Assembly: GCA_040776945.1 (NCBI GenBank)
Contig: JAXGZN010000002.1
Location: forward strand, 32,001-96,000
Direction of reading: 5' to 3'
DNA: 64,000 nucleotides
Origin: Methanomassiliicoccaceae archaeon
GTDB taxonomy: Archaea > Thermoplasmatota > Thermoplasmata > Methanomassiliicoccales > Methanomassiliicoccaceae
Positions 7,145 through 16,937 of the stretch are shown piece by piece; position 1 is the first letter of the stretch; every line of letters starts with the position of its first letter. Under the pieces are notes generated by a model. It was not told where the DNA came from. It ran no database searches and was given only the letters and a program-made list of their open reading frames with translations. A program made the translations under genes and the position numbers.

Positions 7145-7198
7145 GATACAATGTTGCAATTAACGCTCTTTAGAAAACCAAGGATGCAACAATGTTGC
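7145..7198. promoter_or_regulatory. Two copies of a candidate operator GCAACA-N-TGTTGC in the AT-rich promoter of the methyltransferase
   Basis: Perfect palindrome GCAACAATGTTGC at 7186-7198; 2-mismatch copy GATACAATGTTGC at 7145-7157. Confidence 0.6.
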
Positions 7199-7255
7199 GA
7201 TTTCCCGACAACAAGGATTAAATATTGACAAACCAGTTAAGAAAATAGGGATTAT

Positions 7256-8371
7256 ATGGGATACGAGGAGATATTTCCACCATATGACATGGAGTGGCAC
7301 GCCCACTCCACAAGGCGCTTTGCGAATCCCTTCGTCGACAACAAGTATGATCGGGTCGATGTGGACCCGGTCATGCTGTCCCACGCGGCCATTGCGTGCG
7401 GATATACGATCAGGGATTTCTACGAAAAGCCGGAACTAGGCATACACTGTCTGGCCTATATCTACCAGATGTACGACCTGCTGCCGGTTACCCACTGGTT
7501 CTACTCCACCCCATGGCTCAAGGAGCTGGGAATGGAACTGACCCAGAAGGACACCCTCCCGCCAATCGCTGAGACCCCTATCATCAGCGAGCCTGGACAG
7601 GTCGATGACATCGAGGTGCCGGACGAGAAGGCGATCAGGAACGGATACACCTACCCGCAGTACCAGAGGCTGTATACCTATGTGCAGAAGCACCTCCCGC
7701 AGACCTTCGTCCCGATCTCATACGGGTTCGACCCGGTCGGAGAGGCCTCCCACATATGCGGTGTTGAGAACTTCATCATGTGGACCTTCACCGAGCCCGA
7801 CGCGGCCATGAAGCTCCTCAAGAAGTTCACCGACACGTCCATCGAGGGCGCTCTGTGCACTGCCAAGGACTACGGGATGGCCATGCTGGTCCTGGGATCG
7901 GTCCTGGCGAACAACGACATCTTCTCTGACGAGGCTGTCCGTGAGTACTCCGTCAACAACATGCGGTACTATATCGACAAGTGCTTCAGGGGAGGCGCTG
8001 GTCCGCAGATCTTCTACCACCTGTGCGGCAACCACGAGACCGACTACGTGGAGTTCCACAACCTGATATGGTCTCCCTTCACGGTGTTACATATAGGTTA
8101 CAAGGGAAGGGACGTGTTCCCGTCCGACCTACTGGTGAAGGAGTTCGGCAACAAGGCGACCATGATGGGCTCGGTCGACACCAAGCTGCTGATCAACCCC
8201 AACCCCAAGGTCGTGTATGATCAGTCCGCGGAACAGACCAAGGCCGGCCGCGACGCTCCCAGGGGATACATCCTCGGCTGCTCCTGCGAATGCCCCATGT
8301 ACTCGATCCCGGGCAACATCCTGGCAATGACCAGGGCGGCCAAGGACCACGGGTCGTACGGAAAGTGGTGA
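7256..8371 (+). CDS. MtaA/MtbA-like methylcobamide:coenzyme M methyltransferase (MT2, UroD fold)
   Basis: UroD-like size; Zn-binding H-x-C (FYHLCGNH) and C-terminal YILGCSCECP. Confidence 0.78.
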   Translation: MGYEEIFPPYDMEWHAHSTRRFANPFVDNKYDRVDVDPVMLSHAAIACGYTIRDFYEKPELGIHCLAYIYQMYDLLPVTHWFYSTPWLKELGMELTQKDTLPPIAETPIISEPGQVDDIEVPDEKAIRNGYTYPQYQRLYTYVQKHLPQTFVPISYGFDPVGEASHICGVENFIMWTFTEPDAAMKLLKKFTDTSIEGALCTAKDYGMAMLVLGSVLANNDIFSDEAVREYSVNNMRYYIDKCFRGGAGPQIFYHLCGNHETDYVEFHNLIWSPFTVLHIGYKGRDVFPSDLLVKEFGNKATMMGSVDTKLLINPNPKVVYDQSAEQTKAGRDAPRGYILGCSCECPMYSIPGNILAMTRAAKDHGSYGKW

Positions 8372-8381
8372 GGTGAAAAAA

Positions 8382-14600: not shown

Positions 14601-15428
14601 GCGATGGCCTCGGGAGGACTCGAGGGAAGGGTAGCGAGCGAGGTCTGGCCTGGCCTGGATATCAGCGAGGCCGGCTCGGTGCGGTTCTCCCGGGAGGGCC
14701 AGGAGATGGAGGTAAGGACAATGCCATCGGTCATCAGGGAGGGAACGCGGGACATCGGCATCATGCTGGCCTTCGGCGAGCCGGCGCCGGTCCGGGCCGG
14801 GACTGACCCGAGCACCAACCCCGAGGCCCTCGCCCATGACCTGAACGACTCGCTCCAGGTCATCATGGGCAGCGTGTCCCTGGCCAAGGAGTACGTGATC
14901 CCCGAGGGCCGCATGTACAGCAAGCTAAAGCGGATCGAGAGCGCATCGGTCACTGCCCGCGACCTCGCCGGCAAGCTTATGTCCCCGGCCCGTGAGGTGT
15001 ACCTTCCGGTCCCTGAGGCCCCTTCGGACCTCACCCGTGGCAAGGGCCGCCTGCTGCTAATGGACGATGACGAGAACGTCCTCGAGGCAACGAGCGATCT
15101 CCTTCGCTATTTGGGATACAACGTCGAAGTGGCCAGAGACGGAGAGGAGGCGGTGGCGATGTGCAGGGAGGCCGAGGAGATATGGCAGTCATACGACCTG
15201 GCCCTGGTCGACATCTCGATATCCTCAGGCATGGGAGGGATGGAGGCCAGCAAGAGGCTGGCGGAACTGAACCCCAAGATCGTCCTGATAGTCACCAGCG
15301 GATACCTGTCCGACCCGATAGTCGCGAACCCCTCGGCCAACGGCTTTGCCGCTGCGCTGTCGAAGCCCTACTCCGCCGAGCTACTGTCCAAGACCATCGC
15401 TGAGGCCCTGGCCAACCGACCTGCCTGA
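11681..15428 (+). CDS. MEDS-PAS-long coiled-coil-PAS-HisKA-receiver protein lacking HATPase
   Basis: MEDS (HIALIY, GLEKGELCLYI, ICQYDRRSF, THP); PAS (WAWELD..GKYAYSSP, GVDRDIS); about 570 aa of heptad-rich sequence; AHDLND H-box; REC (LLMDDD, LVD, SKPY). Confidence 0.85.
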
Positions 15429-15464
15429 GCAAAACCTATTAGGGCCCCGGGGCATAATGCCCCG

Positions 15465-16937
15465 ATGGCCCTCCTCGACAAGGTCAAGATCTTCATCGCC
15501 CGCCGGCGGCTCACGTCCCTTAACATAAAAGGTGACGGCAATGCTCTCGAGCAATGGATCCACGGCAAGGTGCGCCAGGAGTTCGAGAGGTCCCGGGAGT
15601 TCAGACAGGCCCTCGGTCGCGAACAGCTCGGGGAGATAACCAGGCATGAGCTCCGAGAGTATCAGCTTCACCGGTTCCGCAGGCAGATGGCCTATGTGAT
15701 GGAGAACTCGTACTACTATCAGAAGAAGTTCAAGGACCTGAACCTGAGGCCGGAGGATATCCGCACCTACGATGACCTGGAGAAGGTGCCGCTTACCGAT
15801 CCCGCGGACCTTGCGGCCGAGCCCTTGACCTTCCTGTGCGTTTCCCAGAGCAAGGTAATGCGGGCCTTCACCACCTCCGGCACCTCGGGGACGAGAAAGC
15901 GGCTATTCTATACCCAGGATGACGTGCTTAACATAGTTGATGCCATTTCCGCGGCGCTTCGCTCTGTCGGCATGTCCGGAGCGGACACACTGCAGATAAT
16001 GTTCCCGGCGGTATCGGCCTGGGACCCCGGGCTCATGCTCGACAGCGCGTGCAAGGTGGCCGGACTGCGCTCAACGGTCTGCAGCTCGGTGGACGTGGAC
16101 GAGCAGATCAGAACGATGATGGAGAAGGACACCAAGGTAATGATCGGCCTGACCTCGTTCCTTTACAGGATCACCGTTCTGGCCCGGGACCGGTACGATC
16201 TTCGTTCTCTGGGAATGAAGGCCATCATATGCTCCGCGGAGCCCCTGCCGGAGGCGATGCGCCGCGAGATGCGCTCAGCGTGGGGCTGCAAGATCCTCAG
16301 CCAGTATGGGATGACCGAGATGGGACTGGCCACGGCGATCGAGTGCGAGGCCGCGGACGGACTGCACATGGACGAGGCCGATTATCTGGCGGAAGTGATC
16401 GACCCGGAGACCGGAAAGCACATGCCTGACAGAACGCCGGGGGAGCTAATATTCACGTCTCTGGCGATGCAGGGCACACCCCTTCTGAGATACCGTACAC
16501 GGGACCTCTCCTCCCTCATCGAACCACCATGCCAATGCGACTTCGTCACCATAGGCAAGATGGGGAAGGTGCAGGGGAGGATGGACGCGCAGACCAAGAT
16601 AGGCTATGGGCAGAAGATATATCCCGTTCTTTTCGATGAGGCGCTCCTGTCGATACCGGGCGTGCTGGGCTACCGCCTTGTCCTAGAGCGCGAAGGCTAC
16701 CGCGACAAACTGACCTTCCAGGTGGAGCTCAAAGGCGACCCGGCGGGGAAGGCGGAGATGATCAGGGAGGCGATAATGCAGCTTGACGAGATCAAGGAGC
16801 CGCTGGAGAACGACCTGATATCCGAGCCTGAGATAGAGATCGTAAAGGCCGGCAGCGTCGCCTTTGCGCCGAAGAGCAAGGTGATCGAGGACCGGCGCAA
16901 GAACTACGAGGGAACGGAAAGGCCGAAGGCACCATGA
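15465..16937 (+). CDS. Phenylacetate-CoA-ligase-like AMP-dependent ligase (PaaK / DVU_1553-like)
   Basis: TTSGTSG P-loop, YGMTEMG, PLLRYRTRD, GRMD. Confidence 0.87.
   Translation: MALLDKVKIFIARRRLTSLNIKGDGNALEQWIHGKVRQEFERSREFRQALGREQLGEITRHELREYQLHRFRRQMAYVMENSYYYQKKFKDLNLRPEDIRTYDDLEKVPLTDPADLAAEPLTFLCVSQSKVMRAFTTSGTSGTRKRLFYTQDDVLNIVDAISAALRSVGMSGADTLQIMFPAVSAWDPGLMLDSACKVAGLRSTVCSSVDVDEQIRTMMEKDTKVMIGLTSFLYRITVLARDRYDLRSLGMKAIICSAEPLPEAMRREMRSAWGCKILSQYGMTEMGLATAIECEAADGLHMDEADYLAEVIDPETGKHMPDRTPGELIFTSLAMQGTPLLRYRTRDLSSLIEPPCQCDFVTIGKMGKVQGRMDAQTKIGYGQKIYPVLFDEALLSIPGVLGYRLVLEREGYRDKLTFQVELKGDPAGKAEMIREAIMQLDEIKEPLENDLISEPEIEIVKAGSVAFAPKSKVIEDRRKNYEGTERPKAP

Follow-up and report, generated by a model that had tools for sequence, protein, structure and literature searches.

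Five core genes in the genome of an archaeon of the family Methanomassiliicoccaceae form one functional module, and the reading that we favor, at a probability of roughly 0.5, is that the module would encode a corrinoid-linked methyl-transfer and radical S-adenosylmethionine (SAM) pathway acting on a ligase-activated carboxylate, i.e., an archaeal version of the bacterial "Trs" (DVU_1553-1557-type) system. The genes lie in a 64,000-nucleotide stretch of assembly GCA_040776945.1 (contig JAXGZN010000002.1, positions 32,001 to 96,000, forward strand), hereafter referred to as the window, whose numbering is used for all coordinates that carry no contig label (C1 and C2 mark coordinates elsewhere in the genome). 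The source genome comprises 2.17 Mb at 59.6% GC in 2 contigs and is 99.8% complete, and its closest named relatives in a scan with the TrsS alignment are metagenome-assembled genomes (MAGs) of Methanomassiliicoccus.

The core consists of an MT2-like methyltransferase of the uroporphyrinogen decarboxylase (URO-D)/MtaA family (7256-8371, + strand, identified by Pfam URO-D), a 151-aa two-domain DVU_1557-type fusion (ZnF; 8373-8828, +, Pfam and NCBIfam), a TrsS-type radical SAM enzyme (8935-10329, +, NF045646), a 101-aa protein with seven cysteines (orf101; 10385-10690, −, an open reading frame (ORF) call with no family match), and a DVU_1553-type PaaK-like adenylate-forming (CoA) ligase (15465-16937, +, for which NF045666 is the best of 26 families). 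The component families are already curated in NCBIfam, and the archaeal MtaA-linked form is a variant of a named, uncharacterized system. Our literature search, outside of which Haft and Tolstoy 2025 (mSystems) and its supplements fell, returned no description of this form, its regulator and operator, or its corrinoid link; searching with the DVU_1553/1556/1557 and DVU1551-1559 tags gave nothing informative, the 2022 Haft preprint has no mention of the system, and a preprint on arsenic demethylation deals with mtaB of Methanosarcina.

Co-inheritance of the Core Genes

Conservation was assessed by tblastn comparison of the approximately 20 kb that surround TrsS in 20 relatives, which represent six families of the order Methanomassiliicoccales, and by co-occurrence across 41 genomes of the order. 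MT2-like, ZnF, TrsS, orf101 and the ligase are present in the same order in 20/20 of the relatives' loci. The MT2-like orthologue occurs in 34 of the 41 genomes and the ligase in the same 34; TrsS scores above its cut-off in 28, truncated copies are found in four more, and the fragmented genomes G017 and G019 carry MT2-like and ligase with no TrsS match. The seven genomes without MT2-like and ligase (G004, G005, G006, G009, G029, G031, and G033) have no TrsS-type match either, only matches of approximately 247-370 bits that we read as the Tes paralogue. These seven span three genera, with four belonging to the genus of the window (one of them a single-contig genome), the two members of a second, and one of the three of a third, and the joint presence and absence therefore amounts to co-inheritance with at least three separate losses. 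The orthologues are thus not scattered, in keeping with the candidate system that a first-pass annotation of the window had proposed.

It is also important to consider that the genes might have no common function, as unrelated accessory genes that became chance neighbors where the chromosome rearranges slowly. Synteny by itself says little on this point because the housekeeping neighbors GGGPS and DGGGPS are also syntenic across the order (GGGPS lies beyond the module in 16/20 loci, with DGGGPS in 14 of those). The identical presence and absence of MT2-like, ligase, TrsS and an unlinked regulator described below, through those same losses, argues the other way, as do the reappearance of the gene set, differently arranged, in two further archaeal phyla, the conservation of a TrsS-ligase-adaptor core in bacteria, and the operator that the genes share. 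A chance assembly therefore seems hardly credible.

Relationship to the Bacterial Trs Cluster

A wider scan with the TrsS alignment, using one genome per species, supplied the best 80 of 580 relatives' loci. From outside the order, 43 loci were compared (36 bacterial, 3 from Hadarchaeum, 1 from Methanomethylicia, 1 from a "Nitrososphaeria" MAG, and 2 from Bathyarchaeia) by clustering the ORFs within 7 kb of TrsS and taking family names from Desulfotruncus arcticus. The most frequent neighbors of TrsS are the ligase (37 of 43 loci), the ZnF/oxidoreductase family (36), and a 250-aa protein that is the DVU_1556-family class-I SAM methyltransferase (33), followed by a 150-aa DVU_1555 C-GCAxxG-C-C protein (17), a 930-aa molybdopterin aldehyde oxidoreductase (13), and a 350-aa XdhC-type maturation factor (11). 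The cluster of D. arcticus itself has the NF045663 oxidoreductase and a separate 72-aa DVU_1557 protein, along with a DVU_1551 NTP transferase. Taken together, the neighbor counts and family names mean that the core is everywhere a methyltransferase, an adaptor, TrsS and a ligase, to which the molybdoenzyme is an optional addition.

Among archaea outside the order, all five core genes are found in Hadarchaeum (3 loci, of which L084 ends just after TrsS), where the cluster is flanked by pyrimidine genes. The Methanomethylicia and "Nitrososphaeria" MAG loci hold MT2-like, ZnF, orf101 and TrsS, and the ligase is missing; in Bathyarchaeia TrsS and the adaptor accompany a DVU_1556 methyltransferase, with no ligase match in both loci. 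The proposal of the first-pass annotation that TrsS, the DVU_1557-type protein and the DVU_1553-type ligase belong to the same module as the bacterial clusters, which can include a molybdenum aldehyde oxidoreductase, is borne out by this comparison. Its further suggestion that the methyltransferase stands in place of the molybdoenzyme is not: the gene displaced by the MtaA-like enzyme is the SAM methyltransferase, because DVU_1556 is present in 33/43 loci and the molybdoenzyme in only 13/43.

The archaeal module resembles the bacterial DVU_1551-1559-type cluster in having a TrsS above the family cut-off, a DVU_1553-like ligase, a DVU_1557/DUF7479 domain joined to an NF045663 tail domain in ZnF, and a methyltransferase together with a small Cys-rich protein. 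It differs in that the methyltransferase is an MtaA/URO-D-fold zinc enzyme rather than a class-I SAM enzyme (NF045667), and in that the 800-aa flavin/Fe-S oxidoreductase has been cut to a tail of approximately 85 aa fused to DVU_1557, two pieces that occur as separate proteins in bacteria. The seven-Cys orf101, which is unrelated, takes the place of the C-GCAxxG-C-C protein (NF045669), the archaeon lacks the molybdenum aldehyde oxidoreductase (NF045668), XdhC and the MocA-like gene (none of the three was found in the source genome), the window TrsS has no selenocysteine, and DUF169 and MEDS genes and an Lrp-controlled putative operator have been added.

The ligase scores 280.9 bits to the DVU1553_fam model NF045666, and only 197 and 220 bits to the PaaK models TIGR02155 and NF041878, whose cut-offs are 646 and 700. 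It is homologous to PaaK (PDB 4r1l, 2y4o) over its full length, including the small C-terminal domain (E 1e-48), and differs in lying so far below the PaaK cut-offs and in being conserved next to TrsS, so that its separation from canonical PaaK holds. In orf101, cysteines C25, C28, C42, C45, C52, C57, and C60 are invariant, and the gene is found in 20/20 relatives' loci as well as in the Hadarchaeum, Methanomethylicia and "Nitrososphaeria" MAG clusters. A search of the Atlas gave only archaeal hypothetical proteins and a weak lead to DUF7479 (score 0.91, with 100 features shared). A relationship of orf101 to the C-GCAxxG-C-C protein was considered and ruled out (hhalign probability 0.2%).

Several features of individual loci were observed in passing. 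In the Bathyarchaeia loci L102 and L103, TrsS and the DVU_1556 methyltransferase stand beside HdrA2-like, CCG-domain, geranylgeranyl-reductase-family, B12-binding radical SAM and rhodanese genes. The Dehalococcoidia loci L087, L089, L090 and L092, together with L119, carry tandem TrsS duplicates whose second copies form a clade of their own, and some of these loci add a transporter of the MFS carboxylate type. In the Methanomethylicia locus (L081), a gene for a CobW/HypB/UreG-family GTPase of metallochaperone type (5040-6149) lies between orf101 and TrsS.

TrsS and Its Separation from the Tetraether Synthase Tes

TrsS scores 536 bits to NF045646 (535.9 on the genome), above the cut-off of 490, and 387 bits to the Tes model NF045702, below its cut-off of 450. 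It carries PF04055 and PF23545, a radical SAM core and an N-terminal zinc ribbon, and both the CX3CX2C motif (C109, C113, C116) and C19, C22, and C43 are invariant in 9 orthologues; the true start may lie a few codons downstream of the called one. TrsS matches the tetraether synthase Tes/GDGT-MAS (PDB 7tol; Zeng et al. 2022, PMC8941075) at E 1e-88. The zinc ribbon, radical SAM core and C-terminal Cys-rich segment of the two align at TrsS residues 15-322 and 397-458, and a shorter TrsS segment (residues 323-396) replaces a 117-residue stretch of GDGT-MAS. The source genome moreover encodes a canonical Tes separately, at C2:995180, with 677 bits.

In a quick IQ-TREE phylogeny (LG+G4, 65 rows, with 22 redundant Methanomassiliicoccales rows of 87 left out), six Tes paralogues of the order split from all TrsS sequences with an SH-aLRT value of 100. 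The radical SAM enzyme thus falls outside the Tes clade. The MT2-linked archaeal TrsS proteins form one clade (support 99), and the Bathyarchaeia sequences, which go with a SAM methyltransferase, fall outside it. A table in PMC13188914 gives TrsS as a selenoprotein family, credited to Haft and Tolstoy 2025; the window TrsS is read as lacking selenocysteine because its ORF is open, with no in-frame TGA, and no convincing TGA read-through or conserved TGA within or after the gene was found among the 80 loci.

The relationship to Tes raises the question of lipid tailoring, in which the module would methylate the glycerol backbone of tetraethers to give the butanetriol and pentanetriol tetraethers (BDGT and PDGT) of Methanomassiliicoccus. 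TrsS would abstract hydrogen at the lipid glycerol end and the MT2-like enzyme would feed in a methyl group from the methyl-corrinoid pool, making the pair a split radical methylase. The only characterized relative of TrsS is the lipid enzyme Tes/GDGT-MAS, the module is most often next to GGGPS and DGGGPS in the order, and in 2/2 Bathyarchaeia loci TrsS is beside geranylgeranyl-reductase-family and B12-radical-SAM genes. Production of BDGT is ascribed to M. luminyensis and to a Bathyarchaeia genus in passages of PMC13003381, PMC12694404 and 10.1101/2025.10.20.683597, which describe BDGT as arising by glycerol-backbone methylation. The module also contains a methyltransferase and is dispensable (34/41 genomes), and the literature passages that we examined name no enzyme or gene for BDGT/PDGT biosynthesis (Coffinet 2022 and supplements fell outside the search). 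However, the same gene set is found widely among bacteria that have no isoprenoid ether lipids (Dehalococcoidia, Sporomusa, Syntrophobacter, Desulfotruncus and others), it is hard to see what a CoA-type ligase would do in such chemistry, and the GGGPS linkage is confined to the order, being absent in Hadarchaeum and Methanomethylicia. On balance lipid tailoring seems distinctly improbable.

The ZnF Protein as a Putative Adaptor

The ZnF gene starts 1 nt after the MT2-like stop codon. Its second half matches DUF7479 with 60.3 bits (cut-off 27) and the NCBIfam DVU_1557 family NF045645 with 40.2 bits, and residues 3-77 are similar to NF045663 at its C-terminal tail, over positions 678-757 of 759, so that the first domain of approximately 85 aa is homologous to the tail of the bacterial 800-aa oxidoreductase and also to stand-alone 87-aa proteins. 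No PDB sequence match was found. The window protein has the zinc-ribbon-like cysteines C94, C97, C122 and C125 in two CxxC pairs; since these are not invariant among orthologues, a redox role is doubtful and we read ZnF instead as an adaptor. A function of the N-terminal domain as an acyl- or thiol-carrier with an invariant lysine was considered and rejected, as the lysine of the "LAK" motif in this shared domain is replaced by R, C, Y or H in the fused bacterial tails (42 sequences).

A structure prediction for the TrsS-ZnF complex lends weak support to docking of the two proteins: its score was 0.47, relative to 0.01 for the best of 3 controls, with runs agreeing in at least 84% of contacts and a partner pLDDT of at least 86. 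In the benchmark for this procedure, the mark was reached by 58/80 solved complexes and 2/110 mismatched pairs; at scores of 0.60 or below it was reached by 7/80 solved complexes and by both of the mismatches that passed.

The MT2-Like Methyltransferase

The MT2-like protein matches URO-D (PF01208) with 92 bits, and its AF2 model (pLDDT 91) has MtaA (PDB 4ay7) as the first-ranked PDB match (TM 0.76/0.83, E 1e-13), followed by uroporphyrinogen decarboxylases and MetE. Residues H255-x-C257 and C344 do not vary across 13 sequences, among them two MtaA-family paralogues from the source genome in which H-x-C-G and the distal cysteine align with those of the MT2-like protein, and H-x-C-G aligns with 4ay7 as well. 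We take these residues (H255, C257, C344) to correspond to the zinc ligands of MtaA. MtaA and MtbA are methylcobamide:CoM methyltransferases, and CmuA, MtsA and MtpA are relatives within the MtaA fold family.

The MT2-like protein thus shares with MtaA/MtbA a TIM-barrel URO-D fold and, in three genomes, linkage of its cluster to a corrinoid protein gene. It differs in sharing only 15-20% identity, in a subfamily-specific N-terminal extension, and in always preceding ZnF in the company of TrsS and the ligase. By sequence, it belongs to a divergent URO-D-family subfamily that is distinct from canonical MtaA. The "MT2 methyltransferase" of the first-pass annotation is accordingly no canonical MtaA, the models of which score far below their cut-offs. 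The subfamily has 209 members at E ≤ 1e-10, of which the 120 best matches listed all bear the source name "uroporphyrinogen decarboxylase" (family protein), and PMC10804542 has no passage on it.

Other members of the subfamily were seen in varied settings. Two MT2-like paralogues of the source genome (53-56% identity; C2:535476-536579 and C1:424510-425610) stand alone, in unrelated and uninformative contexts. No match to the subfamily at E ≤ 1e-60 was obtained in the module-lacking genomes of the window's genus (G004, G005, G006, G009). Two relatives of genus g3 (L028 and L044) have tandem MT2-like duplicates, with 68-71% and 78% identity to the window protein, and are missing DUF169.

A Shared Palindrome, an Lrp-Type Regulator and a Corrinoid Protein

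The palindrome TGCAACANTGTNGC has four matches at three places in the window (7145, 7185/7186, and 8877), as compared to 0.12 expected, and 0/100 shuffles reached four. The distal putative operator, with one mismatch to TGCAACANTGTNGC, is at 7145-7158, approximately 100-110 nt upstream of the MT2-like start, and the proximal one, a perfect palindrome of the TGCAACAATGTTGCA type, is at 7185-7199, approximately 60-70 nt upstream of that start and upstream of a TATA-like TTAAATATT. A third putative copy, at 8877-8890, lies upstream of the TrsS gene. Genome-wide, exact matches are found only in the two intergenic regions of the cluster, and no intergenic site elsewhere comes within one mismatch. 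With up to two mismatches permitted, the palindrome GCAACAnTGTnGC is found at about −76 and/or about −116 of the MT2-like start in 18/20 relatives' loci, against a background of 28 other matches in 395 kb of retrieved sequence. The copy that precedes TrsS is specific to the source genome, with a two-mismatch match in just 1/20 of the relatives' loci. The MT2-like genes of the Hadarchaeum, Methanomethylicia and "Nitrososphaeria" MAG loci were found to have no palindrome upstream, and the same holds for the two paralogues. The palindrome that had been reported upstream of both the methyltransferase and the radical SAM genes is therefore real, and it is conserved for the former and genome-specific for the latter.

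A looser match lies at the 5' end of a gene for an Lrp/AsnC-family regulator (C2:497579-498124), 10-24 nt before the probable start M27. The protein has PF13412 (52.6 bits), PF13404 (44.1 bits) and PF01037 (43.5 bits), i.e., HTH_24 and AsnC ligand-binding domains, and the palindrome recurs at the 5' end of the regulator gene in 12/12 loci. Its orthologue is single-copy in 32/41 genomes and was not found in the seven genomes that lack the cluster, nor in the fragmented G017 and G019. In G015 and G011 the regulator gene is inside the cluster, between ligase and MT2-like, and in G013 it is next to MT2-like. These sequence relationships point to the Lrp-type protein as the putative dedicated regulator of the module. 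It would repress itself, as its own site lies between the TATA-like box and the start, and would activate MT2-like/ZnF and TrsS, whose sites are upstream of the TATA-like boxes. The co-regulation envisaged in the first-pass annotation is thus supported by a conserved shared putative operator and a co-distributed regulator.

Archaeal Lrp/AsnC-type regulators use palindromic boxes of 13-15 bp. The putative regulator of the module resembles them in combining HTH_24/AsnC with a ligand-binding domain and in having the palindrome over its own promoter and upstream of the TATA-like boxes of target genes; a difference is that the putative box GCAACAnTGTTGC is specific in the genome to the regulon of the module. 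One further copy was observed, a one-mismatch palindrome at C2:342287, which falls approximately 130 nt into the 5' portion of another MtaA-like gene on the minus strand (C2:341403-342419; TIGR01463 score of 204 bits) and may be due to chance or may mark a further regulon member.

No corrinoid protein is encoded in the window, as had been noted earlier: it contains no B12-binding domain, and all 9 matches in the genome are elsewhere. The missing partner is probably encoded outside of it. A looser palindrome match lies 144-156 nt upstream of a gene for a 212-aa corrinoid protein (C2:489431), in an island that also holds the regulator gene, one MtaA gene scoring above its cut-off (307 bits), another that is MtaA-like, and an activase of the RACo type, and no MT1. 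Inside the cluster of G015 and G011, the regulator has a copy of this corrinoid protein gene beside it (the gene order there being ligase, corrinoid protein, regulator, MT2-like, ZnF, TrsS), and G013 has fragments of the corrinoid gene beside the ligase and upstream of the regulator. The palindrome is found upstream of the corrinoid gene, at a distance of 156-170 nt, in the source genome and in 6/6 cluster-bearing genomes of two genera, and in 0/3 congeners that lack the regulator and cluster, though these have kept the corrinoid gene. From this pattern we infer that the MT2-like enzyme works with a corrinoid protein.

RNA Contigs and Two Alternative Roles

Twenty sequencing runs hold the stretch, six of which are metatranscriptomes, and four RNA runs from four studies were compared over positions 5000-20000. 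RNA contigs over MT2-like/ZnF (7257-8779, 7264-8830, 7363-9769, and, in two pieces, 7408-8618) have depths of 471, 374, 266 and 101-109, and those over TrsS, orf101, DUF169, MEDS, ligase and GGGPS range from 4 to 35 in depth; in some of the runs, parts of the stretch have no contig over them. The contig ends at 7257 and 8779/8830 adjoin adapter sequence, and a GC hairpin followed by a T-run, which resembles a terminator, lies 3' of the MT2-like/ZnF unit (8834-8870, +). This suggests an abundant, possibly leaderless MT2-like/ZnF transcript, read from assembled contigs in which DNA carry-over is possible.

The corrinoid island and the apparent transcript levels bear on the possibility of catabolic methylotrophy, in which the MtaA-like protein would be an MT1 that strips the methyl group from a methylated carboxylate, e.g., a methylthio or methoxy acid. 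The methyl group would pass to the orphan corrinoid protein, then to the neighboring bona fide MtaA, to coenzyme M and finally to methane, with TrsS, ligase and orf101 handling the carbon skeleton before or after demethylation. There is precedent in that CmuA, MtsA and MtpA are MT1 enzymes within the MtaA fold family. The regulator island has the corrinoid protein, MtaA, MtaA-like gene and activase and is without an MT1; the MT2-like/ZnF contig depth, far above that of the neighbors in 4 RNA libraries, gives a hint in the same direction, although contig depth is a poor measure of expression. The accessory distribution (34/41 genomes, and 2 paralogues in the source genome) is typical of substrate-specific methyltransferases, and a ligand-sensing activator of Lrp type would suit substrate induction. 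On the other side, a SAM-dependent methyltransferase takes the same place in the bacterial and Bathyarchaeial versions (33/43 loci). Because a SAM enzyme only methylates, lineages with TrsS, ligase and adaptor in common would have to run the transfer in different directions, and nothing points to the identity of the methylated substrate. We consider a catabolic role rather unlikely, albeit well alive in view of the MT1-less island, the apparent high expression and the accessory distribution, which are to be set against the reading that we favor.

The difference in depth can also be seen as a sign of maturation, with the low-abundance TrsS, ligase and orf101 building a cofactor or post-translational modification for an abundant MT2-like/ZnF client; the bacterial client would be the DVU_1556 methyltransferase with its DVU_1557 partner. 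The apparent 10-30-fold gap between MT2-like/ZnF and the others, in separate transcription units under one operator, is in line with such a division, as are the strict co-inheritance and the weakly supported TrsS-ZnF contact (score 0.47). Yet the 42 sequences of the shared N-domain have no Lys, Cys or other attachment residue common to all, the zinc-ribbon cysteines are not invariant, and the depth argument rests on contigs. A modification common to both types of methyltransferase is moreover unlikely because their folds are unrelated. Maturation is therefore improbable as the role of the module.

The Proposed Pathway and Its Weak Points

In the corrinoid-linked pathway that we favor, the Lrp-type regulator would respond to a small ligand, activate the MT2-like/ZnF and TrsS promoters, and repress its own. 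The ligase would adenylate a carboxylate metabolite and probably convert it to a CoA thioester. TrsS, docked to ZnF, would then functionalize an unactivated carbon of this metabolite by way of the 5'-deoxyadenosyl radical, by analogy to Tes, and the zinc-site MtaA-like enzyme would transfer a methyl group, with the corrinoid protein as one partner and a nucleophile of this metabolite, probably a thiol, as the other. As to direction, we lean slightly to methyl-corrinoid as the donor, doing the job that SAM does in the bacterial version, because the bacterial counterpart is an irreversible SAM methyltransferase. The earlier proposal of ligase activation and radical modification of a methyl substrate or cofactor remains a plausible hypothesis.

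A number of points weigh against this pathway. We know of no substrate, product or activity for the TrsS, DVU_1553, DVU_1556 and DVU_1557 families, so that every chemical step is drawn by analogy. Scores fall below the NCBI cut-offs for ZnF as DVU_1557 (40.2 with a cut-off of 60) and for the ligase as DVU_1553 (280.9 with a cut-off of 300), and far below them for the MT2-like protein in the MtaA/CmuA models (43.7 vs. 235.4 for TIGR01463, 33.8 vs. 400 for NF040654, and 59.9 vs. 244 for NF004889). Among 14 ZnF orthologues, the CxxC cysteines are lost in L039 and half lost in L032, and the predicted docking of TrsS to ZnF counts as little support. The palindrome is upstream of the corrinoid gene in 0/9 loci of more distant genera, so that the corrinoid link is firm only for part of the order, and the corrinoid orthologue is also found in the cluster-lacking G004, G005 and G009.

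The RNA data add to these points, since assembled contigs are unable to rank genes or to prove transcript ends or levels, and one contig (X18) spans MT2-like into TrsS; if the MT2-like/ZnF level is really far above that of TrsS and ligase, it fits a linear pathway poorly. Lastly, the archaeal form may already be described or explained in Haft and Tolstoy 2025.

Additional Genes and Flanks

ORF calls place all seven ORFs of the cluster within 7256-16937, and the families and flanks likewise agree with the initial description of seven accessory genes in approximately 10 kb between housekeeping blocks. Its title named six of them and left unnamed the seventh, which is the small Cys-rich orf101. 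On one flank are housekeeping genes for 2-oxoacid:ferredoxin oxidoreductase, flavin reductase and HAD, and on the other GGGPS, DGGGPS, M50 peptidase and RadA.

The two genes of the cluster outside the core are those for a DUF169 protein (10762-11562, −, PF02596) and a 1262-aa MEDS-PAS-long coiled coil-REC protein (11640-15428, +, Pfam and NCBIfam). DUF169 scores 137 bits to PF02596 (gathering score 27) and is found in 16/20 relatives' loci and in 0 loci outside Methanomassiliicoccales. Its AF2 model (pLDDT 82) has no Foldseek PDB match at E ≤ 0.001, there is no PDB sequence match, and a literature search gave two table mentions only. The MEDS protein, with PF14417 at 125.6 bits (gathering 29.8) in addition to PAS and REC, is found in 9/20 relatives' loci, all of one family (f1), and is an insertion specific to the family Methanomassiliicoccaceae. 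Both genes are later, lineage-specific additions to the candidate system, accessory to the module and not among its core parts.

The architecture of the MEDS-PAS protein is unusual and confined to one family of the order, with approximately 650 residues of coiled coil that match SMC/Rad50 models, a C-terminal receiver domain, and before the receiver a stretch that by eye is like the H-box of histidine kinases. A domain scan found no DNA-binding, kinase ATPase or output domain, and the protein was rejected as the factor that binds the operator, given that it is without a DNA-binding domain and is missing from families that retain the operator.

Further observations concern the immediate neighbors. 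The ORFs for GGGPS and DGGGPS (17549-19098, −), a pair that is syntenic with the module across most of the order, overlap by approximately 60 nt as called (18280-18340). Between ligase and GGGPS, a 123-aa PdxT-like ORF (16978-17349, +) aligns to the SNO/PdxT glutamine amidotransferase profile (188 positions) at positions 2-113 alone and is truncated or frameshifted. Directly upstream of the module is a gene for a metallo-beta-lactamase-fold protein with two rhodanese domains (5670-7034, +), which is syntenic with the module in 10/20 relatives' loci; a rhodanese gene is also near TrsS in the Bathyarchaeia locus L103. These rhodanese neighbors may point to a sulfur-transfer link with the module.

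Significance

Methanomassiliicoccales are methanogens of gut, sludge and wetland that live only by the reduction of methyl compounds, and their known methyltransferase systems serve methanol, methylamines and methyl sulfides. The module presented here is found in 34/41 genomes of the order, has its own putative regulator and is apparently well expressed. In it, a corrinoid-type methyltransferase is paired with a radical SAM enzyme, the only studied relative of which makes lipids that span the membrane. For the uncharacterized bacterial Trs clusters it provides a tractable archaeal counterpart, and the swap from a SAM-dependent to a corrinoid-dependent enzyme narrows the role of this gene in the pathway to methyl transfer as such. 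The predicted pair of Lrp-type regulator and operator also gives an experimental handle, as the ligand of the regulator could reveal the substrate.

Should the module be concerned with lipids after all, it would supply a gene marker for a widely used sediment lipid biomarker and a case of a radical SAM enzyme that relies on an external corrinoid methyltransferase rather than on a fused B12 domain. Any of these readings would add a reaction type to the biochemistry of methanogens, whether a new methyl substrate, a methyl-corrinoid-dependent biosynthesis, or the methylation of a lipid backbone.

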